From an uncultured Planctomycetales bacterium (GTDB lineage: Bacteria > Omnitrophota > Gorgyraeia > Gygaellales > Profunditerraquicolaceae), in NCBI GenBank assembly GCA_964608955.1, contig CAZSQC010000004.1, positions 1-35,392 on the forward strand: 35,392 nucleotides of DNA, written 5' to 3'. How positions within the stretch are numbered: the first letter of the stretch is position 1; every line of letters begins with the position of its first letter. This document shows positions 2,127 through 17,892 of this stretch, in pieces. Under the pieces are notes generated by a model. The model made no database searches and was not told the DNA's origin. It saw only the letters and a list, made by a program, of their open reading frames with translations. The translations under genes were made by a program, and so were the position numbers.

Positions 2127-3045
2127 CTCTCGCCTGATCCACTAAAAATAAAACCGCCATGCGTACTGCGATACCGTTTGTAACCTGGTCTAAAATTACT
2201 GAATTTTCTCCGTCTGCCACCTGACTGGACATCTCGATCCCGCGATTAATAGGCCCGGGGTGCATTACTACAATATCCTTTTTGGCTTTCTTTAACCTTT
2301 CATGCGTTATGCCGAATTCTTTAAAATACTCCAACTGTTTTGGAAAAGCAGTCTCTCCGTCGCGTTCAAACTGCATACGCAGAACATTAACCGCATCGGC
2401 ATTCTTCAGCGCCTCTTCTATATCATAAGTCACCTTTACGCCAAAACCCTCTATTCCGACAGGAATGAGCATTTTAGGGGCGCAAACAGTCACCTTTGCG
2501 CCCAGTTTGGTCAATCCCCACATATTTGAACGCGCAACGCGCGAATGAGCGATATCTCCCACAATACTGACATTTAAACCTTCGATTCTGCCCAGCTTTT
2601 CCTTAAGGGTAAAAATATCCAGCAGCGCCTGGGTAGGATGCTCATGCCAGCCGTCTCCGGCATTGACCACGCTTAAATTTACATGTTTTGCGAGCATAAG
2701 CGCAGCCCCGGAACAGTTATGCCGCATAACAATAATATCCGCTTTAAGCGCCTCGATATTGCGCCCGGTATCAATAAGGGTTTCCCCCTTTTTAACGCTG
2801 GAGGTCTCGGTAGCAATATTAATCACATCCGCCGAAAGCCTTTTGGCAGCTACTTCAAAAGAAACGCGCGTACGCGTAGAAGGCTCATAAAATAAATTTA
2901 CCACTGTCTTCCCGCGAAGGGCAGGAACCTTTTTTATTTCCCTGCTGGAAACTTCTTTAAAAGATTCGGCGGTTGATAAAATCAGCCCTATCTCTTCTCT
3001 GTTAAGTTCTTCTAACCCTAGCAAGTCTTTTCTGTTCCAGGTCAT
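2101..3045 (-). CDS. pyrB: aspartate carbamoyltransferase catalytic subunit
   Basis: 314 aa with the carbamoyl-phosphate binding motif [21 protein letters not shown] and HPGPINRG. It has a 4-nt ATGA overlap with pyrR and a 26-nt overlap with pyrC. Confidence 0.92.
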
Positions 3046-3578
3046 TTTTCGAGAATTACTACTTCTTCTGTTCCGTCGGTCTCGGATAAACGCACTTCCA
3101 CGGTTTCGTTCTTAGCAGTAGGAATATTTTTACCGACGTAGTCAGCGCGGATAGGGAGCTCCCGATGCCCGCGATCGGTCAAAACCGCAAGCTGTATTGA
3201 TTTAGGCCTGCCGAAGTCTATTAAAGCATCTAAGGCAGCGCGGATAGTCCTACCGGTGTACAGAACATCGTCAACAAGTATCAATATTTTATCGTTAATG
3301 TCAAAATCTATTTCGGTCTTTCTCACCAAGGGCTGGCCTGAAGCTAAGGCCAGATCATCGCGGTATAAAGTAATATCCAATGCGCCGGATAGAACGTCAA
3401 CCCCTTCAATGCTTTTAATCGCATCTGCAAGACGCTTAGCAAGATAAACTCCGCGGTTTCTTATCCCCACTATACAGAGATCCCGGGTCCCTTTGTTTTT
3501 TTCGACTATTTCATGCGCTATCCTCATCAAGGCGCGGTTAATCCCGTCTTTATCCAGAATTTTAGCCTTTTCTTTCAT
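3042..3578 (-). CDS. pyrR: bifunctional pyr operon regulator / uracil phosphoribosyltransferase PyrR
   Basis: 178 aa with PRTase motif [22 protein letters not shown]. Length and N-terminus are PyrR-like. It is first in the pyr operon and is preceded by a PyrR-type attenuator. Confidence 0.9.
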
Positions 3579-3750
3579 AAGTGAGCACTTGCGTTATGGA
3601 GTCCGCTTTTACCGCGGGCGACATAACTTATATGTTTGAACTTACCCGGCACTAATTTATCTAACTCCTTAAGGCATAAAACAAACTGGTGCCGGGTTAA
3701 TTCGCGCATTGGCTTACTCACGCTTTGCTTTCGTAAACCAAGCGCTCATT

Positions 3751-3780
3751 AAAAAAATACCCCAGGCCTTTAGCCTAGGG
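3751..3780 (-). terminator. attenuator terminator of the pyr leader
   Basis: Minus strand reads CCCTAGGC-TAAAG-GCCTGGGG followed by TATTTTTTTAA. That is an 8-bp GC-rich stem (one G-U pair) plus a U-tract, about 37 nt downstream of the PyrR-binding hairpin and about 170 nt upstream of the pyrR ATG. Confidence 0.65.
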
Positions 3781-3817
3781 TTATTGTTATTTATCTTCAT
3801 GTATTGCATTCTTTTCT

Positions 3818-3853
3818 CCACCTTGCCTGCCTCTCCGGGCAGGGTTAAAGGTT
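3818..3853 (-). promoter_or_regulatory. PyrR-binding (anti-antiterminator) RNA hairpin
   Basis: Minus strand reads ACCUUUAACCCUGCCCGGAGAGGCAGGCAAGGUGG. The upper stem CCUGCC/GGCAGG closes a purine-rich loop, and the lower stem is CCUU/AAGG. The three elements I recall as conserved in PyrR binding loops (CUUUAA bulge, GAGAGGC, CAAGG) are all present. Confidence 0.7.
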
Positions 3854-3869
3854 AAATCTTATTTGATGT

Positions 3870-3897
3870 AGTATAACACGGGAGAGGTATTTGTCAA
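3870..3897 (-). promoter_or_regulatory. sigma70-type promoter of the pyrR operon
   Basis: Minus strand reads TTGACA (3897..3892), a 16-nt spacer, then TGtTATACT (extended -10, hexamer 3875..3870). Confidence 0.65.
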
Positions 3898-3905
3898 GTC
3901 TAAAT

Positions 3906-3977
3906 TCTTAAAAAGGGGCGCTAATATTCGGGGCCTTCTTATTGGCTGATAAACCTTTTTGGAAGGATCAGCGCCCC
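3906..3977 (-). terminator. candidate intrinsic terminator of the giant ORF
   Basis: On the minus strand, GGGGCGCT (3977..3970, overlapping the TAG stop) pairs with AGCGCCCC (3922..3915) and is followed by TTTTTAA. An inner CCTTC/GAAGG pair is also possible. The enclosed region is unusually long at 47 nt, so confidence is modest. Confidence 0.4.
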
Positions 3978-6900
3978 TAATTTATCAAAACCGGCTCTTT
4001 TTCTGAAACCCGCATTTTCATTAGTTCCTCCTTGATTTGAGCTGCGGGTTTCTCGGATTCAAGCAAAACTAATAGCTGCTTAAGAGAGCTTTCGGTTGAA
4101 ACACAACGCTCTTCCTCCAGCCTTAAGATGTCGGCTATGCAGCTTAAAACCAAACCTAATCTTTCCTTGCAATCATCGGATTGACATGAAAATAGAATAT
4201 ACTCTCTCATGCGCTCAATGGAAGGAATAATCTTTCCGTTCAGCATATTTTGAATCTTATTCCACTCCATATCTAGCTCTAAAGCATCTTTTTTAACCAC
4301 AAGTTTACCTGGGGTGGTTAAAAAGGCTCCGCCTGGAATAGGCTGCGTATTTATCGGAAGGGAACGGAAGTCTATTCCTCCCTTTTTCCCCTCTTCTTCC
4401 CCCGTAACCGGAATAGCGTCCGGACTGCTCTCTTCCGGAAGATCGAACAGAAACTCTTTCAATACCTCATCCAGCGATCTAACAAAAAATCTTTCTGTCC
4501 CAAAAGCAATTTTTTTCTTTTCCAGAACATCCTTCTTTATTTCCAGCTTCTCTTCATGTGTTAAGTGCCGTGAAATCTGCTGTATAACCCATAGCGAATC
4601 CTCATCAAACTTCCAACCGGTTTTCTCCGCCTTAGTCCTGGTATACAAAACAGCGCAATAATCTATTACTCCTTGTATGGCGTTTTTATTCTCTTTTATC
4701 CATTGCTCTAGCTCCTTTGGATTAGACCTGAATCTTTGAGCATCAGGCATAGTTAAAATCCTATTCACATAGTTTTCATAATCCTGCGGGGTCCTAAAAT
4801 AAATTCTCGCCCTGCCGTCTCTTGTAACTAACAATAAAGCGGTGTGCTTAAGGGGCACGTTTATCTCCGGATGGCCGTAAAACAGGTACCTCCCTGCCTC
4901 ATAGTTACGCACATAATCACGCAAATCAAGAGAAGATTCTCCGTTAACCATCACCGAAACCCCTTTAATCTCTGACCTAGACCTACCGGCTCTTCTCTTC
5001 CAAGGAGCAAAGTCAATATTGTCATAAAAGCGCATTGCTGTAAAAACATCCGCTAGCTCCTCTGGAGACCTGATTACGTTTACCTCCGCTAAATCCCTGG
5101 CAATGATTACTTTTTGTTCTCCGAGTAGCATCTGAACTAAGTCCGAACCGCCGCCATATACTAATTCGTCTTTATCTTCAAGTTCAACAAGTTTAACGAA
5201 AAATGGATCTATCTGGCTAGCATCCACCTCTACTGACCAGGTAAACCAACCGTCTCTCTGTGCACGCGTTCCTTCAATAAAACCCGTTATTATTGCAGGA
5301 GGGTTAACTTTTTTAAGCTCTCCTGATAAGCGAGAGTCTCTTTTTGGAGCTGTTTCACGGACACCTCCTAAGGCAACAGCTGCACTGGAACTTCTTGGGC
5401 TTGACTTTTCTTTTAAGAAAGCCGTTATTTTCCCTGACGGATCAATTCTTTTCCAAGCGGGCTGGGCTTGTAAATCCGTTATTCTACTGTGTATATTCTC
5501 TGCTAGATCCTGCGATTTCCCGGTATAAACAAATCCTTGCTCCGGATCGCTCACCCAGGCACGATACCCTTGATTTTCTGATCCGGTAATCATGATATTA
5601 TCGGGCCTTAAATCAAATACATCTACCAGCCCTGTTGATTCATCAAGCATACGCTCAAAAAGCTCAATCACTGCCTTCATCTGCTGATCATTAAGAGGCC
5701 CTAATTGATCGAGCCTTTTATCCAGCTTAGTAGTAACGATAAAATAAAATCCTTCGGCGTCTTCATTTATGAAACCGGAGTCTACAATATCTGGAGAAAT
5801 GCCTTTTCTTGAGAAAAGTTTCCATGCGGAAATATTAGCATTCCTGCCTGGCTTATTCATCACTCTCAAAACATGTCTGCCATCCGGAAGAGCAAAAACA
5901 AAATTAAACATCCCTCCTCCTAAAGGCTTTCCTAAAGATACCCCGTCCAAAGAGATGTCGCCTTCGTCATCTATTTTTATTCTGCGGGAATACGATCCCT
6001 CCCCGCTATCTTCACCTGCTTGGATGTCTCCTCCTAACCCCCTTCCATCAGCTAGTTCTCTTGCCTGACGCTGGTCACGGGCAAGTAAAACCGGAGCTAA
6101 GGCATCGCGTATCCTCTGGGACTGCTCTGGATGCATGGCTTCTGCCATCATGCCAACATGATGAGCCTGCGCATCATTTAATCCTGACTGAATCGCAAAT
6201 GCTTCTGCTATATCGTGAATTAAGATTCTTTCAGCTGCTGCTTTTCTTTCTTGGGGGTTAAGGCTTGAACCGTTAAGGAGGGAGTTTATTTTATCTTGGT
6301 TTACCGAGACTACGCTGCCGTCTGCGCTGACAGAGACGTAAGAGTCCTGGAGATTATTAATAACGATACGTATCTGCCTGCCGTTTACAGTAACTAATCC
6401 CGAGACAACCGTAACTACGCCCTGGCTATTGACGCTTACCGGTATAACCAGGCTACCGCTATTAAGCGCATCTAATACTGTATCTGCGTAACTGCCCAAT
6501 AATTCCAGATTTCCTGTTTCTACCTGTCCGGGGGCGCCTATTGCTTCAGGGGCTCTTTCTGAAGAAAGGCCCTTCTCACTAATATCCTGCGCACTCCCGC
6601 TCGCATCTTTCTTATTATCCGTAACAATCTCTTTCTTAGCTGTAATGATTGTAAAAGGAACCCCCGTTTCTGAGACAAAAAAACCGTTCTCCGCAAGAAT
6701 ACGCCTTGACTCGCTCCTTCCTTCCCTATATAAAGGTATATCTTCATCCTGGCTGTCAGGAACTATGTCTTCATCTATAGGGGTAAGGTGGCCTCCGTTT
6801 ATAATAAGTGCTAGCTGCGGCAAGCTGGCAATCATCTCCAAAGCAATAACATTAGCTTTGCCGTATACCTCGTGAGGGCCTATATTCACTAATGCTACCG

Positions 6901-9900
6901 CGGGCCTGCTTCCTAAATCATAAGAACCCAAGATATTTTTTAGCTCCGGATCTGCTAAATCCTTCTGAACAATCTCTACCCTTTCACTCTCCTGCGACAA
7001 TAGAATTCTTGACCTGGCAACGCTCTGGGCATTATTCTCAATAAGCACCGCTTTCCTTGCTCCCAGTCTGAGCGCAACTAATGAAAGAAGCCCATCCCCT
7101 GCGCCGGCATCAAAAACAACAGCGTCATTAAAATTGCCTGCGTTAGATATCATGGAAGCTATAACTAAAAGAGCATACCGGCTTATCGGCTGTATGGAGG
7201 TGGCATCATAAAAAGTAGGCACTACGAAAATAACATTTCCTTTATATTTCTCATAAAGCTTAGAGGATTTTAGTTTATTCTGTTTCTCCAGAACCTCTCT
7301 CTTAAGGCCTTCTAAGTCACCACTCTCCCTAGTATCTCCAATAACAACAAAAACAATTGGTCCGAAACGGACAACCCGCGCAGCGCCCTCATGAGTTGCA
7401 TCGGATTCAATAGCATATTCATACCCTCCAGCTTCAAGAGTGCGCGGGAAATAGTCATCGATTTTTTTACCGCCTAAAATACTGTTCACTTCTTCTGCCA
7501 AGGCATGCGCTTCCTGATCCGTAACTTTGGTCATTATCCTCAGGCTTTCTTTCTCTTCTGCTGAACCGCTGGGCTGAGAATTTATAACCAAGCTTGCCAT
7601 TTTCACTGCTTGCTCGCTCACTCTTACAACCTCCCTCCTATAGGAAAGGAGTTCCTCATACCTGTACAAATTAGGATCTTTGCTCGACAAAATACTCTTT
7701 ACAGCCGCTGCCGCATATGATTGCAGGTTAAATACATTAATATCCAAACCTAAGCCATATAAATAATTTTTAATTTCATTTGTAATTAATCCGGGATTAA
7801 CCCGATACATAATATGATAATAATAAAACACCATTATTCTGCTAAAAACCTCTTCCGTCGTACCAAGAAACAAGGCTTCGGAGTCTGTTTCTTCTCCTAA
7901 AGCTATTTTAGCTGCCTCTTCCTTAAAGTAACTCCTGAACAATAAGTGCCCCAAGACTTCATGGAGGATAAGAATATCTTTTGCCGCTGGGTTGATTACC
8001 ATCCCGGAAGAAGTTTTCTCCAAAAGGCTTATATCTACAGCAAGGTAAGCCTTGTCTTTCACTCTCGCCAGCCTAACTTTAAACAAAGGAATATTTGTTC
8101 CGACGGCAGAATTTACAAATTTAATCTCCGGCAATCTTAAACCGCTGATCCCAAGCCTGCTTAGCCAACGGGAAAGATACTCCTTAAGGTCTTTTTCTGC
8201 ATCCGGGATTTCTTCTGCCTTGCCAATCAAGCTTTCGTCTATATTGGACCTGTTGGTCCTTTTACGCATAGTTCTGGCTGTTAATATATAATTTTCGTGC
8301 TCGATCTGCCTGCGCTCAATCTGTCCGTGAAGTTCATCGGCAATAAAGTCGGCCAGCTCTTCCGGAGACTTCATAAAACGCGTAACCTTAATAAACTCAT
8401 TCTTATTCTGCTGATTAATCTCAAGCGGGGGAAGGTTCGCGCGCATCAGGTAATAATCCATAAGCAGCTTCGCCACCCTTCTGTTACCGTCGGAAAAATA
8501 CTGTAGATCAGTAAGGGCAAAGTAAACTAAAGCGGCCTGCATTACGGCAGGCATGCTCTTAAATTCTCCCCCTGCAACATAGAGAGATAAGTTCTGCATA
8601 GCCCTCTTAAGGTCATCTCCTCCTCTTAAAAATCCTTTTACTCTGTCCGTATGTTCAACGTCATGCATACGCATCTTCCCCGCAGAAAAACCGCAAAGGC
8701 TTCTGGCTGCCACTGAATGCAACTGCTCGACATGCTTCATAAAACTGAAGATGTCATCTTCAATAATTACGCCTTTTTCAATCCAATTGTTTACCAACCT
8801 GGACGCGTCATTGATATCCCGCATTTCGCTATGAGGGATATCTTTACGGGCGCTGTTAAGATACTCCAGAATATTCATGTATGCTATCTTGTAATTAATG
8901 CGATCATGGAAATAATATTCAAAAAGGCTGGTAATTTTAGATCTTAAATTAAAGGTATCGCGCACTTTCCAGTCCGAACGCTGATTGATATAGACGTCCC
9001 AGAAAATATTTCTCCAAGGAGCAAGATAAATAACCGTAGTAAAAATTACTATGGGTTTATTTAGGATATAGTCAAAAATCCTTTTGACGCTTTCTTTATC
9101 GCTTATCTGGCTTGTTTTTCGTGCGAATACTTTCGCGAATACTACCGGGTCAAAGAACGGGGCAGGGGAAAACGGTTCCGGATTAGGATTATGGGGAAAT
9201 GCCTCCGGGTTCATTAATGCGGCCAGGTGCATCTTCTTTAAATCTTCTACTATTTCCTCTGCTATTTCCTCTTCCGAAGATGTAAGGGAAATCTGAAGGA
9301 CCAACTGCCTGGCATGCCTTCTGTCTCTTTCTATAAGAAGCGGGGACAAAGCATCCCTGATTTTCTGCGAATTAGCGGGGTACATCGCTTCAGCCATCAT
9401 CGCGGAAAAATGGCTATCCGCTAAAGTATTTCCCAGCTGCAACGAATATGCTTCCGTAATTTCGTGTATTATAATCCTCTCTAAAGCATTTATTCTTTCC
9501 GCGACGCTAAGGCCCGTATTTACAAACATCTGATTAATTTTTTGAAGGTTTAAATGCACCTCTGTTCCGTCTGCACTGACAGACCCCAGCAATAACTGTC
9601 TATTATTAATTACTATTTTTATCCTGCGGTTCTCCACATTAAGAACCATTTCTCTCAAAGAAAGCTCCCCGTTAGTATTGCTTACTACGGGGAAAACCAA
9701 AGCGCCTTTTTTAAAAGCTTCGATTACCGTGTCAGCCGGCAGGCCCAGGGAATCTAAATCGCCGGTAGAAACAACCCCGGAAGCGTACTCAAAGTGCCCT
9801 CTATTTTTTTCAAAAATCTCAAGTAGCTCGTTATCTCCTAACTTACCAACTTCTTCTTTAGACACTCCCAGCAAAGATGCAATTGTCTCCTGTGTTGATT

Positions 9901-12900
9901 CGAGCTCTTCGGCAGTCTTGGAATCTGCGAAAATACTTAATAATACTTCGAATGCAGACCGCGCGCCAACGCTATCCCTCCCTGATTTTATATAGGAGGA
10001 AAGCGCATAAACAACAGAAGAATACAGAGAAGGCTCATTCTTAAAGATTTCCCTTAGGCTCTGAAAAGCAGATTCCGGAACCAAATCCGGGCTTATTTTA
10101 GTGGCTGACTGTATATATTTTATGTAATCAATGCTATCGGTAATAGAATAAGTTGCATCCCTTCCTTTAAGCCCCTCGCTTACAATTCTTCCGCGCAACT
10201 CAATGAAATCTCTGGCAAAATTATCAGCCTCCTGGTTAGGCTCGCCTTGCTGCTTATGGTAAACGTTTGCATAGATTAGAACCTGCCCAGACATGTGTTT
10301 AATCACCCTATTGATAAAGTTTTTATCCTGGATACTTATCCCGTCCGAAATCATCCCGTTAATTACGTTAATAAGAATACTGAGATTATTCCAATTGATA
10401 GTAAGCCTTACGGCTCCTGTTTCATCTTCTACGGAACCTTCTTCAAATAATATATCCTGCAAGCCGCTTAAATCATAACCTTTAACTAATGCTTCAATTT
10501 GGGCGTATAAATGATTATCCTTGGTATTCCTGCTTATTTGTCTTCGGTCCGGCGCTCCCTCTTGCTGCTTCGAAGAAACAGGCAGTTTTATAGTTAGGGG
10601 GCCTTTCTTGGAAATATCACCGCTTGCGGCGGGAGAAACTTCTTCTGTTTTCTGTTCTGGTAAAGCCTCTCTATGAGAAAAGATAAAAAACGTAAGAGGA
10701 AATGCGGCTATTGCTGCTATTGCCAGACGGATAACCATGCTGCGCCTCTTATTTCCGGCAGAGCTATTTTCTCCCCCATACCCCCTTCCATCAGCTAGTT
10801 CTCTTGCCTGACGCTGGTCACGGGCAAGTAAAACCGGAGCTAAGGCATCGCGTATCCTCTGGGACTGCTCTGGATGCATGGCTTCTGCCATCATGCCAAC
10901 ATGATGAGCCTGCGCATCATTTAATCCTGACTGAATCGCAAATGCTTCTGCTATATCGTGAATTAAGATTCTTTCAGCTGCTGCTTTTCTTTCTTGGGGG
11001 TTAAGGCTTGAACCGTTAAGGAGGGAGTTTATTTTATCTTGGTTTACCGAGACTACGCTGCCGTCTGCGCTGACAGAGACGTAAGAGTCCTGGAGATTAT
11101 TAATAACGATACGTATCTGCCTGCCGTTTACAGTAACTAATCCCGAGACAACCGTAACTACGCCCTGGCTATTGACGCTTACCGGTATAACCAGGCTACC
11201 GCTATTAAGCGCATCTAATACTGTATCTGCGTAACTGCCCAATAATTCCAGATTTCCTGTTTCTACCTGTCCGGGGGCGCCTTCAAAAGAATTGGATTCT
11301 TTTAGAACCCCGGAGACAAGCGGATACCTGCTTCTTATAATCGGCTTAAGTTTTTTCTCGAATTGCGTACCCCTTTCAGTAACGGACAGGAATATTTCTT
11401 TTATAATATTATTGTCGTCGAAAAAGGCCGGCTCATGTTCGTGGCCTAAGTGCAGATTCTTTAACGTTGCAGGGACATCCGCGTCTACCAATACCGCATT
11501 GACAAATATGATGGTGGGGCCTTTGACCTGTGCAGGCCTTACATTGTCTACTTCTGCAAGTGGCTGCCTGTTTTCACGCAGAATAGACCTTAATCCTCCC
11601 GGATTCCAAAACATAAAGTCATAATAAAGCTTTTCTCCCGATATCCTTCTTAAAATAGCGGCGATTTTATTTTTCAGCCTTAAAAAGTCTTCGCCGAAGG
11701 CAGAAACAAAAGTGCGATCCTTACCTAATAATTCGCCTCTGTTGCGGGCAGCCTGATCCCCTAAGATACTTCCGATAGCCTCGTTAAAAGCCAAAGCAAA
11801 ATTTCTATATCCCTGATATGCGTCTGGATATCTTCCGCGCTTTCCTTCGTCTCCTTCGCGGTCTACCAAATGCTGCGTTCCGTCAACAACTACCATAATG
11901 GGTTGGTTATTTACTAAATACTCCAGGTCTCCTTCGCTAAAGAGGTCCTCCCTAAACACCCAAGGATTTTGATGGCTCTCCGTAGAGCCTATCTTTGTCC
12001 TTATTATTCTGACTCCCCGGCGCGCAAGCTCCTCTTCTATGATATCGATAACAAATCCGCCGTAACTCATATTTGCCACAACTACAACCTCTCTGTTAAC
12101 CGCTCTACCCTGGCTTATTAATTTATCTATAAATTCAAGGAGCCTCTTTGCTTCGAATATGGCATAATCAACCTCTGCTATTTCCGCCGCTCCCAGATGC
12201 ACCTCTCCGGGACGGTGCTCCCCGCTGATAAACTGCCTGTAGTTGTTATAATTTGCCCTGTTTAGGCCAAAACCGTTCTCCAACAACACTGCCACAAAAT
12301 GCGAGTATTCTACATCAATATAAAGAGCTTTTCCCTGTGGATCGTTAATTTTATCAAGCCGGAATCCGCCTTCAGAAATAGCTCTTTTTACCCTTGCAAA
12401 ATCTTCCAGCGCACCTTTTAAATCCTTCTTTCCGAAAGCATATTCCACTAGCCCTTCGGTAGGAATAAACCCTGCCCCCATAATAGCAATGGCTATCTCT
12501 ATCTTTTCCGGACTCAAAAGAATGCTTTTATAATGCCCGAAGTTCTCAATGAATATTTCTGCGATAGAATTATTCCCGGATTTCATTATCCCCTCAAAAA
12601 GTTTCTCTGCGGAGGCCAAGGTCGAAGCAAAGCTTACCGGGCTAAGTTCAGAAAAATGCCTTATACAATTACGTAGTGCGATATTGATCAAAGCCTGATG
12701 TTCTTTTCCGGGGAACTTTTTAGTTAGAGATGTTTTAAACTCTAAAAATGCACGGACCTTTTCTTTTAAAGCCGGAAGATTTCTCTCGTGCTCGCAAAAA
12801 GACCAGAGATAAGTCTCAGCCGACTCTAAATATATGTCTGCCGCACTCATCTCCTTAAATAATAAAGCGAGCTCCAAGAAAGTACGCTGCAGATTATCGG

Positions 12901-15900
12901 CTCCAGGGCTCAGCTTATTAGCCATATCAAACACCGCTACCCAAACCGACTTGGAGAAGAGCATTTGTACATCTTTGTCATCAAGAGCATCCATTAATCC
13001 TGACATAGCGTTCATATAAACAGCGAACAACTTGCCTTCTTTTTCCCCAAGCATTTCTGAAAGTTTCTGCATAAAATTATAGATGACATATTCCGGAATA
13101 TTTTCACTGAGACGCTTCTCCGATGTAATCAGAAAACGGTGTAAGGCCGCGACATTGTTTTTTAATTCTTCGGCGGTGTCGCTATGATTAACGGCATTGG
13201 CTAGTCCGTGTGAACCTCCATAAGATTCATCAAAAAGGTTGTCATCTCTTCTTGAAATAAACTCCGCGGCAAAGTTAAATACCGCATCACAAGCTAAAGT
13301 TGCTTGCGCTGATTTGCTGGAGAAGAGAAACTGCACTATAATATCCAAGATACTCTTAGCTACGCTAAGCGCGCGATGATGCGCAATTCGCGCAGCATTA
13401 GAATCTCCTTTGTGTTTTAGAGAATATATATTTAAAATTTCTTTGGTTTTATTATATACTTTATCGAGAAACGCTTTTAGCTCTTCCTCTCTTTTAGCTT
13501 TATCCGGGATGTTTTCAAGCATACGGTCTGCGATACCCATAACCCTGGATAGAAAAGAAGGTAAATATAACTCGGAGTATTCCATTTCTCCGAATTCTTC
13601 TGTAATGGAACCTGTAAATCTTAATAGCATCTCGGAATAAGATAAGAACTCTTTCTTATCTTCGGTCTCCTCTAAGATTCTGGAAAACCCGAGATAGACA
13701 AAACCGTACCTAGAGTAAGATTCGGTGATATATTTACCAAAGAGGCCCAAGTGCGCTTCTAGCTCAGAGACACTGCTTAAGAACCTCAAGTGCGAAGACA
13801 AAAGTCTTTCTAAATCCCACTTCTCTTTTACTTTCTCGGCGTGGGATTTTAAGAATTCCTCGAGCACCGTTGTTACCCTTTCTGTGCTTTCTCCTGTGCG
13901 TGATATAAAGCTGCGAAACTCTTCTCTCGCAGCAACCTTTTGAAGAACTTCCGAGACCTCTCCTTCTCCTTCGTATCCTACTCCGTCTTTACCCCAGGCA
14001 TCTAATCCTCCGTATTCTATCCTGGCTCCTGCGCTACGGTCAGAAGTTAAAGAACCCCAAAGCTTATGCATTGCCTCGCGTAACTGGCTGTCTTCTCCTA
14101 TCGCCTCTGCTTCTGCGATCATTCCTTCTGTATGCGCTTCTTTCGCACTTAAACCCCTGCCAATAGCAGCATCTTCCGCCATTTCATGCTGCCTTAAGAC
14201 ATTCGCCACCTTAAGAACAATAGGGTCATCTTCCGCAACCCCTAGCACAGAAGCAATCTCTCTGGTATTAACGATAATTTCTCCGCGCGCATTTACCCTA
14301 ACAAATCTTCCGTCGATTCTTCCGGCGAGGTTTTTCAATACAGCTTGCCCTCCCTTGACAGAGGTTGTTTCAGGAGGTCCTCGGCGAGAATCAACCTTAG
14401 CCATAAAAGCATTGAGGCTATTAATAAAATACTCGGTAAAATCAGTTATCGGCTTTTCATTTCCGGCATTACCTCCCAGATTCCAGAACATATTTCTTCC
14501 TTTACTAAGGAAAAGGTCTTTTATTTCTTTTTTTGACATGGAATTTACAAGAGCATGGGCATCTTCCAACAAGCCCAACGCATCCTTTCTGAAGGCCGGA
14601 TGCTTAAGAACCTCGTCAAAAATAAAATTATCCGTTCCCGGTGCCCCGTAATCTTTAAAACCGTACTGCGACATAATCATCGCCAGAAAAAGCAATCTAT
14701 GCTGTGCATTAGCAGATTTTCCCCCTATATACAGCCTATTATCTCCGATATCAACCATTACCGCTTCCTGGTTCCCCTTACGGATAATAAAATTGCCTCC
14801 ATGCATGTCACGCGGAGCCATGCCTCCTAATCCGAAAGTTATAGTAAGGAGGGCGTAAACAATGCTCCTGCGTAAGCGCTCGGTAAGTAAACCCTTATTA
14901 AGTAACCCCTGGGCTGTTTCTCCTTCAATAAACTCCTCGATATACCAACGCCTTCCGTCGGCAGAGACACCGCTCCAGGCGAATTTAGGCACTCCTCTCC
15001 CGTCTAGCCTCTTAAGGTTTTGCAACTCATGGGAAGTGATATCGTTTTTCCCTACTTCCTTCTTGGCCGCCAGAAGTATATTTATCTTTTCTCCAGATAC
15101 CAACGCAAACTGCATCCTATAAACATATTTGTGTGCGCCTTCAGCGAAATAGGAAAGATCCACATCCTGTGAAATATCAGCCCATTGGAGATCTTTAATA
15201 CCGGATATTTTGCGTAATATTGACAGCAGGTCCTCCCTCGAAATCCCGGTAATTAAATCCCTTGAAACGCTTAACAGTGTATTATATTTCTCCCAGGATC
15301 TTTCATCGGTTGAGTCAAAATCAAATTTTGCGATATGGATATTTAGTTTATGACTTACGGGGGCTGCTTCAGTACTGCGCCCAGACGCAACGGATTGAAC
15401 TGGCGCGCTTTCATTTAATACCGTCAGAAGAATGATTAAATCGAGCATCTGCTGCTGGGCATTTAGACCTAAGAAATCCTCCTGTCTATCTGCCTCAACG
15501 CCTTGGCCGGATTCGCGCTGCCTACTAAGCCAGAGCTCATGCAGCGCTTCCCCGGCAGCTAAGACAACCTTACCTGCGGGATTCGTCCCGAATTGAGCGC
15601 TTAATTTCTGTCCATTCTTTAATTGTTGCAGTGCGGATTCTAATGCCCTGCGAAATTCTGCTGTTGAGATGCCCGCAGTCTTTATTAATTCAAGAGCCCT
15701 TCTTACTGACGCAATATTATCATTCTGTATGCGTTCAGGAAGAGCAGCAAAACTTACTACCCTTGATATATCTATTCCGTCTTCAACGTTAACTCCCGCG
15801 CCTAAGGCCAGCTGAGTTGCCAGATGCACTTTCCATGCCAGCTTCTTTTCTTCTCCCGAAGCAGTATCCTGCTGCGTTGCAATGACCTTTGCTCTTGGCA

Positions 15901-17053
15901 AAGGGACCCCACTAGCTTCTATAACATGTCCGTTAGCAAGGCCCGCTGGCAAAGCGCTATTTCCGGGGCTTACTACCTGCGCAACGGTATCGAGGTTGCC
16001 TATTGCAATGCCTCCCGAATAGTAACTTCTTAAAACCCGGCCAAAAGCCGATTGCTGGGAGACTTTATAATTATATTCGCCATCTTTAAATGACTTCTGG
16101 TACTCTTTAAAATAATCATCTTTTAGCCAGGCATCCTTTGAATAAAACCTGTTGATGTCTTTCCCGTCAATCATAGAAGCATAAAACCCATCGGTACCGC
16201 GGAATTTTTTCTTAAACCACTGCGCTAATATTAAAGAATAGTAGACCTGCCTTAACCTGGCGTAGCGCTTCGATGTATTAATTTCCCTGCTAATGTTCGG
16301 AATTATTGTCTCTTTAAGAATTTCTGCGGCATATTCATTTAGCTGCTTAAGGCGTTCATCTTTAAAACTGTAGTCTGCCCCTCCCGGGAAAGGATTATTT
16401 TTGTTCAGATAGTCCTGTTCCAGCATTACTTTTAATGTTGCTTTATAGATATAGGCATTTTCACTTGTTTCCCGGATTATAATTTCATCGGGGACAATCC
16501 AAGGCCGGATTAGTGTCGGTATGGTCACGTTCTGGCTTCCGAAAAGCTCCTCTGCCTTCGCGTAAAGCCTTTCCCAGTATTGCTTTCCTTCCGGTGTCTC
16601 GGGAGAGGTCGCTTTAGCGGTATCTTTTTTTAACTGGACGTCCGCCTCCAGAAAAACTTTTCCGATATCGGTTTTTTCAACAAGGGGGTCGATAATATTA
16701 CCCGGCGAATCGGGCCTTAAATTAACCCAGAAGGAATCATTAGGAAGACTTATGCCGATAAGAAAAAAGCTTAGCAGCTCTTCCGTTGCTTTCTCGGCAG
16801 AAGGCCTTGATAAATTTTTCAGGTTTTCCTTATCAAGAAGAAGCTGAAAGTTATTCGTTGCCGGGCTATACTGCATAAACCTTAAGTGGACGGGACGGAA
16901 ACTGGAGGGGAAAAAGGTATTTCTGAAGGCTGTAAGCTGCCGGGAAATATCAAGCTGTCCCGCAATTTGAGCAAAACCCGATTGCTCAAAAGAAAGTAAC
17001 AAGCATAGAGAAATGGCAATTAACTTTAGGAAAAAAGATTGTTTTATTTTCAT
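3977..17053 (-). CDS. giant multidomain protein (4358 aa) with signal peptide; function unknown (two kinase-like, one Fic-like, one SAM-MTase-like domain and 4 copies of an unassigned module)
   Basis: The ORF is an uninterrupted 13,077 nt. My residue count was cross-checked against nucleotide anchors at six motifs, and each codon matched. Domain evidence is listed in the sub-features below. Confidence 0.95.
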   Translation of the reverse strand: MKIKQSFFLKLIAISLCLLLSFEQSGFAQIAGQLDISRQLTAFRNTFFPSSFRPVHLRFMQYSPATNNFQLLLDKENLKNLSRPSAEKATEELLSFFLIGISLPNDSFWVNLRPDSPGNIIDPLVEKTDIGKVFLEADVQLKKDTAKATSPETPEGKQYWERLYAKAEELFGSQNVTIPTLIRPWIVPDEIIIRETSENAYIYKATLKVMLEQDYLNKNNPFPGGADYSFKDERLKQLNEYAAEILKETIIPNISREINTSKRYARLRQVYYSLILAQWFKKKFRGTDGFYASMIDGKDINRFYSKDAWLKDDYFKEYQKSFKDGEYNYKVSQQSAFGRVLRSYYSGGIAIGNLDTVAQVVSPGNSALPAGLANGHVIEASGVPLPRAKVIATQQDTASGEEKKLAWKVHLATQLALGAGVNVEDGIDISRVVSFAALPERIQNDNIASVRRALELIKTAGISTAEFRRALESALQQLKNGQKLSAQFGTNPAGKVVLAAGEALHELWLSRQRESGQGVEADRQEDFLGLNAQQQMLDLIILLTVLNESAPVQSVASGRSTEAAPVSHKLNIHIAKFDFDSTDERSWEKYNTLLSVSRDLITGISREDLLSILRKISGIKDLQWADISQDVDLSYFAEGAHKYVYRMQFALVSGEKINILLAAKKEVGKNDITSHELQNLKRLDGRGVPKFAWSGVSADGRRWYIEEFIEGETAQGLLNKGLLTERLRRSIVYALLTITFGLGGMAPRDMHGGNFIIRKGNQEAVMVDIGDNRLYIGGKSANAQHRLLFLAMIMSQYGFKDYGAPGTDNFIFDEVLKHPAFRKDALGLLEDAHALVNSMSKKEIKDLFLSKGRNMFWNLGGNAGNEKPITDFTEYFINSLNAFMAKVDSRRGPPETTSVKGGQAVLKNLAGRIDGRFVRVNARGEIIVNTREIASVLGVAEDDPIVLKVANVLRQHEMAEDAAIGRGLSAKEAHTEGMIAEAEAIGEDSQLREAMHKLWGSLTSDRSAGARIEYGGLDAWGKDGVGYEGEGEVSEVLQKVAAREEFRSFISRTGESTERVTTVLEEFLKSHAEKVKEKWDLERLLSSHLRFLSSVSELEAHLGLFGKYITESYSRYGFVYLGFSRILEETEDKKEFLSYSEMLLRFTGSITEEFGEMEYSELYLPSFLSRVMGIADRMLENIPDKAKREEELKAFLDKVYNKTKEILNIYSLKHKGDSNAARIAHHRALSVAKSILDIIVQFLFSSKSAQATLACDAVFNFAAEFISRRDDNLFDESYGGSHGLANAVNHSDTAEELKNNVAALHRFLITSEKRLSENIPEYVIYNFMQKLSEMLGEKEGKLFAVYMNAMSGLMDALDDKDVQMLFSKSVWVAVFDMANKLSPGADNLQRTFLELALLFKEMSAADIYLESAETYLWSFCEHERNLPALKEKVRAFLEFKTSLTKKFPGKEHQALINIALRNCIRHFSELSPVSFASTLASAEKLFEGIMKSGNNSIAEIFIENFGHYKSILLSPEKIEIAIAIMGAGFIPTEGLVEYAFGKKDLKGALEDFARVKRAISEGGFRLDKINDPQGKALYIDVEYSHFVAVLLENGFGLNRANYNNYRQFISGEHRPGEVHLGAAEIAEVDYAIFEAKRLLEFIDKLISQGRAVNREVVVVANMSYGGFVIDIIEEELARRGVRIIRTKIGSTESHQNPWVFREDLFSEGDLEYLVNNQPIMVVVDGTQHLVDREGDEGKRGRYPDAYQGYRNFALAFNEAIGSILGDQAARNRGELLGKDRTFVSAFGEDFLRLKNKIAAILRRISGEKLYYDFMFWNPGGLRSILRENRQPLAEVDNVRPAQVKGPTIIFVNAVLVDADVPATLKNLHLGHEHEPAFFDDNNIIKEIFLSVTERGTQFEKKLKPIIRSRYPLVSGVLKESNSFEGAPGQVETGNLELLGSYADTVLDALNSGSLVIPVSVNSQGVVTVVSGLVTVNGRQIRIVINNLQDSYVSVSADGSVVSVNQDKINSLLNGSSLNPQERKAAAERILIHDIAEAFAIQSGLNDAQAHHVGMMAEAMHPEQSQRIRDALAPVLLARDQRQARELADGRGYGGENSSAGNKRRSMVIRLAIAAIAAFPLTFFIFSHREALPEQKTEEVSPAASGDISKKGPLTIKLPVSSKQQEGAPDRRQISRNTKDNHLYAQIEALVKGYDLSGLQDILFEEGSVEDETGAVRLTINWNNLSILINVINGMISDGISIQDKNFINRVIKHMSGQVLIYANVYHKQQGEPNQEADNFARDFIELRGRIVSEGLKGRDATYSITDSIDYIKYIQSATKISPDLVPESAFQSLREIFKNEPSLYSSVVYALSSYIKSGRDSVGARSAFEVLLSIFADSKTAEELESTQETIASLLGVSKEEVGKLGDNELLEIFEKNRGHFEYASGVVSTGDLDSLGLPADTVIEAFKKGALVFPVVSNTNGELSLREMVLNVENRRIKIVINNRQLLLGSVSADGTEVHLNLQKINQMFVNTGLSVAERINALERIIIHEITEAYSLQLGNTLADSHFSAMMAEAMYPANSQKIRDALSPLLIERDRRHARQLVLQISLTSSEEEIAEEIVEDLKKMHLAALMNPEAFPHNPNPEPFSPAPFFDPVVFAKVFARKTSQISDKESVKRIFDYILNKPIVIFTTVIYLAPWRNIFWDVYINQRSDWKVRDTFNLRSKITSLFEYYFHDRINYKIAYMNILEYLNSARKDIPHSEMRDINDASRLVNNWIEKGVIIEDDIFSFMKHVEQLHSVAARSLCGFSAGKMRMHDVEHTDRVKGFLRGGDDLKRAMQNLSLYVAGGEFKSMPAVMQAALVYFALTDLQYFSDGNRRVAKLLMDYYLMRANLPPLEINQQNKNEFIKVTRFMKSPEELADFIADELHGQIERRQIEHENYILTARTMRKRTNRSNIDESLIGKAEEIPDAEKDLKEYLSRWLSRLGISGLRLPEIKFVNSAVGTNIPLFKVRLARVKDKAYLAVDISLLEKTSSGMVINPAAKDILILHEVLGHLLFRSYFKEEAAKIALGEETDSEALFLGTTEEVFSRIMVFYYYHIMYRVNPGLITNEIKNYLYGLGLDINVFNLQSYAAAAVKSILSSKDPNLYRYEELLSYRREVVRVSEQAVKMASLVINSQPSGSAEEKESLRIMTKVTDQEAHALAEEVNSILGGKKIDDYFPRTLEAGGYEYAIESDATHEGAARVVRFGPIVFVVIGDTRESGDLEGLKREVLEKQNKLKSSKLYEKYKGNVIFVVPTFYDATSIQPISRYALLVIASMISNAGNFNDAVVFDAGAGDGLLSLVALRLGARKAVLIENNAQSVARSRILLSQESERVEIVQKDLADPELKNILGSYDLGSRPAVALVNIGPHEVYGKANVIALEMIASLPQLALIINGGHLTPIDEDIVPDSQDEDIPLYREGRSESRRILAENGFFVSETGVPFTIITAKKEIVTDNKKDASGSAQDISEKGLSSERAPEAIGAPGQVETGNLELLGSYADTVLDALNSGSLVIPVSVNSQGVVTVVSGLVTVNGRQIRIVINNLQDSYVSVSADGSVVSVNQDKINSLLNGSSLNPQERKAAAERILIHDIAEAFAIQSGLNDAQAHHVGMMAEAMHPEQSQRIRDALAPVLLARDQRQARELADGRGLGGDIQAGEDSGEGSYSRRIKIDDEGDISLDGVSLGKPLGGGMFNFVFALPDGRHVLRVMNKPGRNANISAWKLFSRKGISPDIVDSGFINEDAEGFYFIVTTKLDKRLDQLGPLNDQQMKAVIELFERMLDESTGLVDVFDLRPDNIMITGSENQGYRAWVSDPEQGFVYTGKSQDLAENIHSRITDLQAQPAWKRIDPSGKITAFLKEKSSPRSSSAAVALGGVRETAPKRDSRLSGELKKVNPPAIITGFIEGTRAQRDGWFTWSVEVDASQIDPFFVKLVELEDKDELVYGGGSDLVQMLLGEQKVIIARDLAEVNVIRSPEELADVFTAMRFYDNIDFAPWKRRAGRSRSEIKGVSVMVNGESSLDLRDYVRNYEAGRYLFYGHPEINVPLKHTALLLVTRDGRARIYFRTPQDYENYVNRILTMPDAQRFRSNPKELEQWIKENKNAIQGVIDYCAVLYTRTKAEKTGWKFDEDSLWVIQQISRHLTHEEKLEIKKDVLEKKKIAFGTERFFVRSLDEVLKEFLFDLPEESSPDAIPVTGEEEGKKGGIDFRSLPINTQPIPGGAFLTTPGKLVVKKDALELDMEWNKIQNMLNGKIIPSIERMREYILFSCQSDDCKERLGLVLSCIADILRLEEERCVSTESSLKQLLVLLESEKPAAQIKEELMKMRVSEKEPVLIN
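5519..5947 (-). other. protein-kinase-like domain 2 (aa ~3703-3845)
   Basis: It contains the Gly-rich loop LGKPLGGGMFNFVF, the catalytic loop VFDLRPDNIMI (D-L-[KR]-P-x-N as in Hanks-type kinases, codons verified at 5614..5600) and a downstream WVSDPEQ as a possible DFG equivalent. Confidence 0.55.
6037..6539 (-). repeat. R module copy (aa 3506-3672); 503-bp perfect direct repeat, downstream copy in gene orientation
   Basis: It is identical to 10780..11282. Identity stops sharply at both ends. Flanking codons are I/E on the N-terminal side and L/Y on the C-terminal side, after which only weak protein similarity continues (LGGDIQAG... versus YGGENSSAG...). Confidence 0.97.
6644..7246 (-). other. 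class I SAM-dependent methyltransferase domain, PrmA-like (aa ~3270-3470)
   Basis: Motif I is VVFDAGAGDGLLSLVALRLGA (codons verified at 7117..7109). The acidic post-I motif is KAVLIENN. AVALVNIG resembles the PrmA VVANI motif. Confidence 0.7.
8414..8851 (-). other. Fic/DOC-like domain with degenerate active-site motif (aa ~2735-2880)
   Basis: The motif region is ALVYFALTDLQYFSDGNRRVAKLLMDYYLMRANLPPL (codons 8503..8468 verified). Against the canonical H-x-F-x-[DE]-G-N-G-R-x-x-R it reads Q-Y-F-S-D-G-N-R-R-V-A-K, so the catalytic His is Gln, Gly8 is Arg and the last Arg is Lys. Confidence 0.6.
9302..9784 (-). repeat. R module, diverged copy (aa ~2424-2584)
   Basis: It aligns end to end with the perfect copies at about half identical residues by eye: ADTV, LV.PV, I.IVINN, SVSADG, KIN, ERI.IH[DE]I.EA, MMAEAM.P..SQ.IRDAL.P.L..RD.R.AR.L. 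The H-E codons were verified at 9466..9461. Confidence 0.85.
10679..10738 (-). other. internal hydrophobic, signal-anchor-like segment (aa 2106-2125)
   Basis: NKRRS-MVIRLAIAAIAAFPLTFFIF-SHREALPEQKTEE. The 20 residues are almost entirely hydrophobic (one Arg near the N-terminal end), with a basic N-flank and an acidic C-flank. The Met codon is at 10738..10736 and is preceded by AAGAGG plus 6 nt. Confidence 0.6.
10780..11282 (-). repeat. R module copy (aa 1925-2091); 503-bp perfect direct repeat, upstream copy in gene orientation
   Basis: It is nucleotide-identical to 6037..6539 by my line-by-line comparison. The offset is 4743 nt (3 x 1581), so the repeat is in frame. The identical 66-aa shadow ORFs on the plus strand (10804..11004 and 6061..6261) confirm it. 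Confidence 0.97.
14045..14356 (-). repeat. R module, most divergent copy (aa ~900-1003)
   Basis: VLRQHEMAEDAAIGRGLSAKEAHTEGMIAEAEAIGEDSQLREAM aligns with ILIHDIAEAFAIQSGLNDAQAHHVGMMAEAMHPEQSQRIRDAL of the other copies. The shared pattern is H-[DE]-x-A-E, AI, GL, AH, GM-x-AEA, Q-x-R-x-A. It is preceded by a beta-like stretch, FVRVNARGEIIVN. Confidence 0.6.
14729..15160 (-). other. protein-kinase-like domain 1 (aa ~632-775), APH/RIO/ABC1-like
   Basis: It contains EGAHKYVYRM (nucleotide-loop region), ILLAAKKE (beta3 Lys candidate), a YIEEFIEGE hinge, a PRDMHGGNFII catalytic loop (D-x-H-x-x-N as in HADPHPGN/HGDLHPGN families) and VMVDIGDN (DFG-like). The codons for D-M-H were verified at 14809..14801. 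Confidence 0.55.
16967..17053 (-). other. N-terminal Sec-type signal peptide of the giant protein (aa 1-29)
   Basis: MKIKQSFFLKLIAISLCLLLSFEQSGFAQ|IAG has a basic n-region, a hydrophobic core and a small-residue G-F-A cleavage-like site. Confidence 0.7.
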
Positions 17054-17238: not shown

Positions 17239-17892
17239 TTAGATAACAACTACAAATTCGCCGCGGGGTTTTGTTTCCTGAAGTTTTTGAATAATATTTT
17301 TAGGATGGTCTCGTATGACCTCTTCAAATTTCTTAGTAAGCTCCCTTGCTAGAACTATCTCTTTATCCCCAAAAACTTCGTTGATATCTCCCAGGGTGCT
17401 TAAAATTCTATGTGATGATTCGTAGAAAATTATAGTGCAGCTATAGCCTTTTAGCTCAACCAGCTTTTTTTTACGCGCAGACTTTTTATTGGATAAAAAC
17501 CCCGCAAAATGGAATTCATGAGCCGGCTTCCCGGATAAAACCAGAGCATTAATAAAAGCGCTGGGGCCCGGAATAATTGTAAAAGGAATATCGTTTTTTA
17601 TAACTAAATTGATTAAATTATACCCGGGATCAAGAATTCCCGGAGTGCCTGCATCCGAAACAAGCGCTATATCTTTACCGTTTTTTAAAAGTTCGAGCAA
17701 GTATTCGCCCTTGGTAAATCTATTGTGCTGGAAAAAACTTGTTAAAGGTTTTGAGATATTGAAATTGTCGAGAAGTATTTTTGTGTGACGGGTATCTTCA
17801 CAGGCGATGATATCAACGCTTTTTAATGTTTCAATGGCGCGCAGCGAAATATCTTTCAGATTGCCGATCGGGGTAGCAACGATATAAAGCAT
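17239..17892 (-). CDS. rsmI: 16S rRNA (cytidine1402-2'-O)-methyltransferase
   Basis: 217 aa with N-terminus MLYIVATPIGNLKDISLRAIETLKSVDIIACEDTRHT, which is characteristic of RsmI (tetrapyrrole-methylase fold). At 217 aa it is somewhat shorter than I would expect for RsmI. Confidence 0.85.
   Translation of the reverse strand: MLYIVATPIGNLKDISLRAIETLKSVDIIACEDTRHTKILLDNFNISKPLTSFFQHNRFTKGEYLLELLKNGKDIALVSDAGTPGILDPGYNLINLVIKNDIPFTIIPGPSAFINALVLSGKPAHEFHFAGFLSNKKSARKKKLVELKGYSCTIIFYESSHRILSTLGDINEVFGDKEIVLARELTKKFEEVIRDHPKNIIQKLQETKPRGEFVVVI

Follow-up and report, generated by a model that had tools for sequence, protein, structure and literature searches.

A giant gene with a perfect internal repeat

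The window analysed here is an entire contig of 35,392 nucleotides (nt) from the metagenome-recovered genome of an uncultured bacterium of the Omnitrophota (contig CAZSQC010000004.1 of GenBank assembly GCA_964608955.1, labelled there as Planctomycetales). The genome bin consists of 103 contigs, has a size of 1.03 Mb and is 83% complete. One giant open reading frame (ORF) of 4358 amino acids (aa) occupies positions 3977-17053 of the window on the minus strand, on which all features of this gene described below are located. Its product has a signal-peptide-like N-terminus, a conserved N-terminal domain of ~350 aa, a variable middle, and a conserved C-terminal domain of ~120 aa. Both terminal domains are common to the homologues P0002 (labelled Margulisiibacteriota) and P0004, whose middles are unrelated. 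A Pfam scan of the whole protein at E <= 0.1 detected only Fic, PrmA, and Methyltransf_25, and an exact look-up of the giant protein returned no match.

The middle of the protein contains a 167-residue module, here termed R, two copies of which are identical at the DNA level. These are the N-proximal copy R1 (10780-11282, residues 1925-2091) and the C-proximal copy R3 (6037-6539, residues 3506-3672). A base-by-base comparison at an offset of 4743 nt found 0 mismatches in 503 nt, and the 1.03-Mb genome contains only these two copies of the repeat. Outside this run about three quarters of the positions mismatch at once, and identity is at chance level on both sides. An earlier note on this DNA, made from the sequence alone, had described a perfect in-frame pair of this kind with abrupt ends inside one gene, and the observation is confirmed. 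The two copies enclose X, a unique cassette of 4240 nt (6540-10779) encoding a hydrophobic segment, a third and divergent R module (R2), and Fic-like and methyltransferase-like domains. The Fic match (aa 2776-2869) and the methyltransferase match (aa 3310-3372) both lie between R1 and R3, as the note had it. Together, X and one repeat copy comprise 4743 nt, i.e. 3 x 1581 nt or 1581 codons. Recombination between direct repeats, by reciprocal exchange or single-strand annealing, deletes the intervening DNA, and duplication is also possible. By arithmetic, recombination of R1 with R3 would remove residues 2092-3672 and leave an open frame of 2777 aa, which agrees with the earlier calculation, and a duplication of the cassette is also allowed. 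The genome encodes RecA (PF00154, 459 bits; contig C12, 2509-3291).

The borders of the identical tract coincide with the borders of the module as set by its relatives, namely a single-copy representative (G203), a distant relative on contig L041 (60% identical), and P0004 (56-58%). Upstream of the module, R1, R2, and P0004 share the motif N-x-F-E, which is absent from R3. At the other end, R1 is directly followed by four codons for Y-G-G-E (10769-10780; TAT GGG GGA GAA) and R3 by their counterpart L-G-G-D (6026-6037; TTA GGA GGA GAC), with 4 differences in the 11 nt next to the tract. After G-R-G, the motif [YLF]-[GE]-G-[ED] is found in R1, R3, R0 (a further copy, see below), P0004, P0022, and L041. 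It is the family-conserved end of the module, situated just outside the tract. Four differences in 11 nt beside 503 identical bases fit a tract that ends inside older homology, and are weak evidence for it. The earlier note, whose quoted flanking peptides were correct, had regarded the C-terminal flanks as weakly alignable. This holds for the four codons, beyond which the flanks are not similar: no residual DNA homology was found in the 90 nt beyond each repeat end (shuffle p ~0.9). At synonymous sites, R shows no compositional oddity. Its GC content at third codon positions (0.425 vs. 0.417 for the whole gene) is ordinary and thus gives no hint of a foreign insert.

Two further copies of the module are divergent. 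R2, located within X (9284-9808, aa ~2421-2585), shares 46-48% protein identity with R1/R3, in accordance with the note's estimate that a third copy at 9302-9784 is about half identical. At the DNA level the identity is 53%, and synonymous sites are saturated, the same codon being used at 34 of 78 conserved residues. No micro-conversion between R2 and R1 was detected, with a longest common exact DNA run of 9 nt, and R2 shows no sign of recent exchange with R1/R3. In the module tree, R2 is not demonstrably closer to R1/R3 than are the modules of other species. The most divergent copy, R0 (14024-14506, aa ~856-1017), is 27-35% identical. Apart from the R modules, no internal repeats were found in the giant protein.

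Repeat junctions in this and other assemblies

At least ten contig pairs of the bin share exactly 55 identical end bases, and 41 contigs contain runs of N, nearly all of them 10 or 100 N long. These features indicate a SPAdes-type short-read scaffold set with a final k-mer length (k) of 55. On contig C54, an exact 55-bp (= k) direct repeat (1803-1857 and 1958-2012) surrounds a 100-N gap; this is a scaffolding artefact, which marks the k of the assembler. Because 503 bp is far longer than k, the repeat is a single graph edge R with a loop R -> X -> R. If the parts of the gene before R1 and after R3 are denoted N and C, the contig N-R-X-R-C is the minimal traversal of this loop, and each of the four repeat-flank junctions (N|R1, R1|X, X|R3, and R3|C) must be represented by k-mers in the reads. 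X forms one unique path, and no repeat of at least 45 nt ties it to any other contig of the genome. The only alternative pairing would combine N-R-C with a 4743-bp circle that is entirely open reading frame, which is implausible. Differences between the copies could have been popped as bubbles, and therefore the assembly vouches neither for the interior identity of R nor for the loop count. Closer than 55 nt to a repeat end, however, a difference forms no bubble but merely shortens the repeat, so that the identity of the outer 108 nt is real.

Contigs from other samples that are 97.8-99.7% identical to the window were found by exact look-up of the housekeeping proteins that flank the giant gene, PyrR (3042-3578) and a TP_methylase protein (17239-17892), and two more (L057 and L058) were reached via fragments clustered with the giant protein. 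In the Logan assembly (k = 31) of SRR27676560, L050 leads from the upstream genes through the N part and breaks off at 11253, after exactly 30 nt of R1, and L044 begins at 6066 with exactly the last 30 nt of R3 and continues through C to pyrR. These breaks, located k-1 inside both repeat ends, show that in this sample, too, R is joined to two sequences on the left and two on the right. The Logan contig L045 (SRR27676562) begins with the first base of R3 (6539) and covers R3 and C; its first 30 nt equal the last 30 nt of L050. A JGI scaffold, L057 (3300028241), leads from position 41 of R1 across the R1|X junction to 9491 and contains a 15-N gap, and L058 (JGI 3300010351) covers X from 9449 to 6995 at 98.2% identity. 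Through these two contigs, parts of X are known from other samples (98-99% identity). A further contig, L046, which comes from an independent JGI assembly and starts at 6141, reproduces R3|C as do L044 and L045. The last cluster look-ups yielded no additional fragments. Three of the four junctions have thus been reproduced outside this assembly (N|R1 in L050, R1|X in L057, and R3|C in L044, L045, and L046), and the fourth, X|R3, is implied by the in-branch that L045/L050 show where R begins. The three recovered junctions and the branching at both ends of R in other samples mean that the two-copy architecture is older than the split of the strains.

The start of L045 at the beginning of R implies an in-branch, but the break expected at the R end is missing, and the contig passes straight on into C. 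Low coverage of R1|X in SRR27676562 is the simplest reading of this missing out-branch, or the strain may be built differently. Exact look-ups did not find R as a separate contig of either strain type, nor the X and C contigs predicted in Logan for the strain of the window. Scans of metagenome contigs with the R1 peptide and with a 33-nt pattern from the R end gave no match in a set that seemingly lacks near-identical records.

These data bear on the concern that the contig could be chimeric or mis-joined, so that one of the four repeat-flank junctions would be absent from any genome, for example because two R-sharing genes had been stitched together. Such an error is conceivable in a metagenome bin with a multi-copy giant-gene family, as R is longer than typical inserts and the path was probably set by the loop rule and not by spanning reads. 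However, X leaves the end of R and re-enters its start as one path with no link of at least 45 nt to elsewhere, the frame is open across all four junctions, and three of these occur in independent assemblies. A chimeric join is therefore very improbable and largely excluded. The same logic provides a recipe for judging a perfect repeat in a short-read bin when the reads are not at hand: k is taken from the contig-end overlaps, only the outer k-1 bases of the repeat are trusted, and the breakpoints of independent k = 31 contigs serve as junction evidence.

Identity within the genome and divergence between strains

Strains were compared with the window over 11253-17053 (L050, L051, and L052) and 2473-9449 (L045, L046, and L058). 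In the housekeeping genes on either side they differ from it by 0-0.9%, but in the giant gene the differences amount to 1-9% per 500 nt, which makes this gene a hotspot of strain-level divergence (1-9% inside vs. <1% in the neighbouring genes). Divergence in the gene peaks at 9.4% over 12500-13000. L051 is identical to the window over 13500-15500 but 1-3% different on the flanks of this segment. Such mosaic patterns suggest recombination between strains.

R3 of L045 differs from R of the window at 27 of 503 nt. Sixteen of these differences are synonymous and the other 11 alter seven residues. The variable repeat positions are 13, 31, 34, 65, 82, 97, 130, 134, 211, 214, 268, 271, 276, 307, 337, 370, 371, 373, 380, 381, 382, 384, 385, 403, 412, 415, and 448, and L046 carries the same variants as L045 at all four sites that it covers. 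Hence, R1 and R3 within one genome (0/503) differ less than R3 does between strains (27/503), a comparison that is assembly-robust for the outer 108 nt only. Three of the 27 variable sites (positions 13, 31, and 34) lie in this uncollapsible outer zone, and at each of them R1 equals R3 in the window and both differ from R3 of L045. According to our calculation, the chance of 0 differences in 108 nt at 5.4% divergence is ~0.0025. If R1 and R3 had drifted apart since before the split, ~27 or more differences would be predicted in the window; none is seen, which favours homogenisation. Position 13 is the sole site known in all four copies. Here the window has A in both R1 and R3, and the other strain has C in both R1 (L050) and R3 (L045), which is the pattern expected under concerted evolution.

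R1 of L057 is of the window type at positions 41-501; it matches R of the window at 461 of 462 compared positions, with no mosaic. R1 of this strain carries a G->A change at repeat position 502 (window 10781; L057 position 462), two bases ahead of the end of the tract, and its repeat would be slightly shorter if its R3 resembles the others.

Paralogous copies that are more alike within a genome than orthologues are between genomes point to homogenisation by gene conversion. We thus consider it probable (roughly 0.6) that intragenic gene conversion keeps R1 and R3 identical or nearly so. R1 and R3 would be long-standing paralogous copies of the 167-residue module, situated between enzyme-like blocks of a giant, secreted-looking, polymorphic protein. 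One copy would have been rewritten from the other by non-reciprocal homologous recombination of the RecA type. The flanks would never have been homologous, so that the homogenised tract stops at the module borders. The interior of R would presumably be as identical as assembled. The earlier note had already preferred conversion of pre-existing paralogous modules to a fresh duplication. That preference now finds support in an architecture older than the strain split, in 27/503 differences between vs. 0 within genomes, and in position 13. The cross-strain data, and not the alignability of the flanks, carry the conclusion. With respect to tempo, both copies may be continuously homogenised in every strain.

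Several points weigh against this interpretation. The X|R3 junction has not been recovered from any other assembly, and the interior identity (positions 55-449) and the copy number of the loop depend on the assembler. For R1 of the other strain, the sequence covers 30 nt only, so that a fully concerted pattern rests on one site. The four-codon extension is short and glycine-rich, and 7 of 11 bases would match by chance with a probability of ~0.02-0.03 by our calculation. Finally, R1 of L057 also fits a model in which R1 and R3 are normally ~5% apart and a single recent full-length conversion occurred in the lineage of the window. This would still be conversion, but not continuing concerted evolution, and the other strain would then have been homogenised at least over the first 30 nt.

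A fresh duplication, in which the module was copied once and very recently to a second site, would need no conversion. It would account for the perfect identity and the abrupt ends, and also for R3, which is not preceded by the N-x-F-E motif of R1, R2, and P0004, as if copying from R1 had started at GAPGQ. However, strains that are 1-9% apart in this gene, far more than 0/503, possess R in both contexts with branching at both ends, and the duplication must therefore predate their split. Moreover, no simple one-step mechanism would place an in-frame copy of exactly one module 4.2 kb away. A recent duplication is therefore very improbable and, like the chimeric join, largely excluded.

A second giant ORF in the same genome resembles the one described here. 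Contig C11 (L038) contains one frame of >7359 aa that is open at both ends and harbours a 390-bp in-frame direct pair (12546-12935 and 15669-16058; offset 3123 = 3 x 1041) with one non-synonymous mismatch. This sole mismatch is located 31 nt from the border, i.e. within k, where bubble popping cannot act. A third, divergent copy (30-45% identical) is found at aa ~5905-6042. The repeated module ends with ...ELIITIIHEALTQ, which recalls the ILIHDIAEA core of R. As the same pattern as that of R1/R3 in the same genome, the C11 giant gene is counted for gene conversion.

The C11 repeat is also relevant to the question of whether the assembly exaggerates the identity of R1 and R3. The copies would then be real but up to a few percent apart, they would have been merged by bubble popping with the edge traversed twice, and the cassette count might be wrong. 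In a SPAdes-style set with k = 55, a 503-bp repeat necessarily becomes one edge with a loop, and the only mismatch that survived in C11 lies just out of the reach of popping. Furthermore, R1 of L057 and R3 of L045/L046 are ~5% apart, and a pair of this kind exists in nature if these contigs come from one strain. On the other hand, the outer 54 nt at each end, which cannot collapse, are identical in the window despite the three strain-variable sites. At k = 55, the 27 differences would also produce non-bubble arms (positions 1-134) plus a bubble of ~290 nt (211-448). In SPAdes, the limit for simple bulges is ~3k, and a bubble of ~290 nt would exceed it. The close match of the window's R to R1 of L057, without any mosaic, is a further argument against merged copies. 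We therefore regard an interior identity overstated by the assembler as unlikely, albeit as an alternative of some weight.

Module family and comparison with known systems

The R module is present in 8 of 234 genomes of the order, and none of the 10 genomes of the same genus contains it. Among 1.84 billion proteins it was found in 25 cluster representatives, mostly proteins of >1000 aa and usually with one R each, and no Pfam family exists for it. An AlphaFold model of the module (window 10769-11302; pLDDT 84, pTM 0.79) predicts a helix at the N-terminus, followed by a sheet of six short strands and by five more helices. H115, E119, H133, and M-x-A-E-A are invariant. No PDB match to the model had E < 0.05; selecase, abylysin, and jannalysin (mini-metallopeptidases/minigluzincins) and the zinc-protease parts of BlaR1 and BepA appeared only among the insignificant matches. 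A scan of genome contigs for the module found only the one distant relative already mentioned, L041 (545-1090 of CAYFRM010000073.1, labelled uncultured Clostridia), whose module is closer to R1 than R2 is. The L041 frame has 1713 aa, is open at both ends, and begins with a near-perfect ~46-aa tandem repeat (QVKEDILGYKNIGDVDILK...).

Some established kinds of repeated element were considered and rejected. Template and variable repeats of diversity-generating retroelements differ mainly at template adenines, and here there are 0 mismatches in 503 nt. Inteins and similar mobile in-frame elements start with Cys, Ser, or Thr and end with His-Asn followed by Cys, Ser, or Thr, whereas the module starts with GAPGQ and ends with DGRG. 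A Hint fold is also not supported, as there is no Pfam match and the predicted helix, six-strand sheet, and five helices have no significant match in the PDB. The gene does not encode a surface protein with tandem identical repeats, because 4240 nt of unique sequence intervene between the copies, which thus do not lie head-to-tail. A MARTX-type toxin was dismissed since RTX repeats and the cysteine protease domain were not found in the Pfam scan of the whole protein.

The conserved N-terminal domain (window 16004-17053, aa 1-350), located behind the signal peptide, represents a multi-copy family: 43 of 61 related genomes encode it, in up to 30 copies each, at the head of ORFs of 300-5000 aa with unrelated middles. 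A second member in the same genome (contig C2, 8148-9164) belongs to a 2130-aa frame, and the best match within the genus (66%, genome G004) heads a 1208-aa ORF. A search for homologous proteins with the cassette as query returned no match. Compared with aa ~960-1915 of the window's protein, P0025 (1711 aa) carries the end of R0 and the whole block that precedes R1, conserved to the motif KLKPxI[RK]xR. Past this border it has unrelated domains where the giant protein has R1. The same border with another continuation indicates that block borders are reused and that blocks have been reshuffled over evolutionary time.

Such reshuffling invites the idea of a built-in cassette switch, according to which the modules are kept identical because recombination between them, or with other R genes, adds or removes effector blocks in frame. 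The frame would indeed survive deletion or duplication (2777 or 5939 aa), the ends and R are all that family members have in common, with unrelated blocks between, P0025 continues differently at the border before R1, and L045 passes from R into C without the expected branch. Most relatives, however, have a single R, and R is absent from 226 of the 234 genomes of the order. An N-R-C contig was not found, although k = 31 contigs cannot show one, the in-frame offset is automatic when both copies encode the same module in one ORF, and DNA-level identity of R between different genes was not seen. A dedicated switch is thus rather improbable. Only slightly less doubtful is a broader proposal, in which R modules are the in-frame recombination joints of a polymorphic giant-protein family and the module is perhaps also a small zincin-like processing unit that separates the blocks. 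Homologous exchange between identical R copies, either inside the gene or with imported DNA of relatives, would then insert, delete, or swap enzyme-like blocks, and variants of one secreted protein with different lengths and cargoes would coexist in a population of these ultra-small bacteria. If the 1581-codon cassette is indeed lost or gained in frame via the repeats, a candidate multi-enzyme secreted protein would have an easy way to vary.

The proposed conversion of R1 and R3 has counterparts in well-studied bacteria. In tufA/tufB of Salmonella and in rRNA operons, duplicated genes evolve in concert by RecA-dependent gene conversion. As in these systems, the dispersed direct copies described here are identical within the genome but differ from their orthologues in other strains, the identity does not extend past the duplicated unit, and recA is present. 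Unlike them, R1 and R3 are domains of one reading frame, and they are known from metagenome assemblies with one site determined in four copies. DNA-identical internal repeats that vary in number are a property of the alpha C/Rib family of group B streptococci and of the G5-E repeats of staphylococcal Aap/SasG. These proteins share with the giant protein the in-frame, nucleotide-identical repeats in a large protein of extracellular type, in which recombination changes the length and keeps the frame. Their repeats are tandem and numerous, whereas R1 and R3 are two copies 4.2 kb apart around unrelated enzyme-like domains, and no length variant has been observed.

A third parallel is offered by the MARTX toxins of vibrios, in which recombination within rtxA1 alters the set of effector domains (PMC5555677, citing Kwak et al., 2011). 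Both are proteins of several thousand residues with conserved ends and a modular, enzyme-like middle that varies between relatives, and in both cases intragenic recombination has been proposed as the source of variants. The conserved ends are unrelated, however, and in the protein described here, which is known from sequence alone, the recombination substrate would be a repeated internal module. Giant genes have been reported from Omnitrophota and other uncultivated bacteria, where repeats cause unresolvable fragmentation of assemblies (bioRxiv 10.1101/2023.11.21.568195). Intragenic gene conversion is not discussed in the text of that paper, in which the word "recombination" occurs 0 times (bioRxiv 10.1101/2023.11.21.568195). 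The gene in the window resembles those genes as a very long ORF in a small metagenome-recovered genome, but at 4358 aa it is far below the 30,000-aa class and encodes other domains. The concerted evolution of repeats is already known; its setting in the internal modules of a giant gene is new. If R1 and R3 are indeed kept alike by conversion, the homogenisation familiar from tuf genes and rRNA operons also operates on internal modules in the giant genes of uncultivated bacteria with small genomes.

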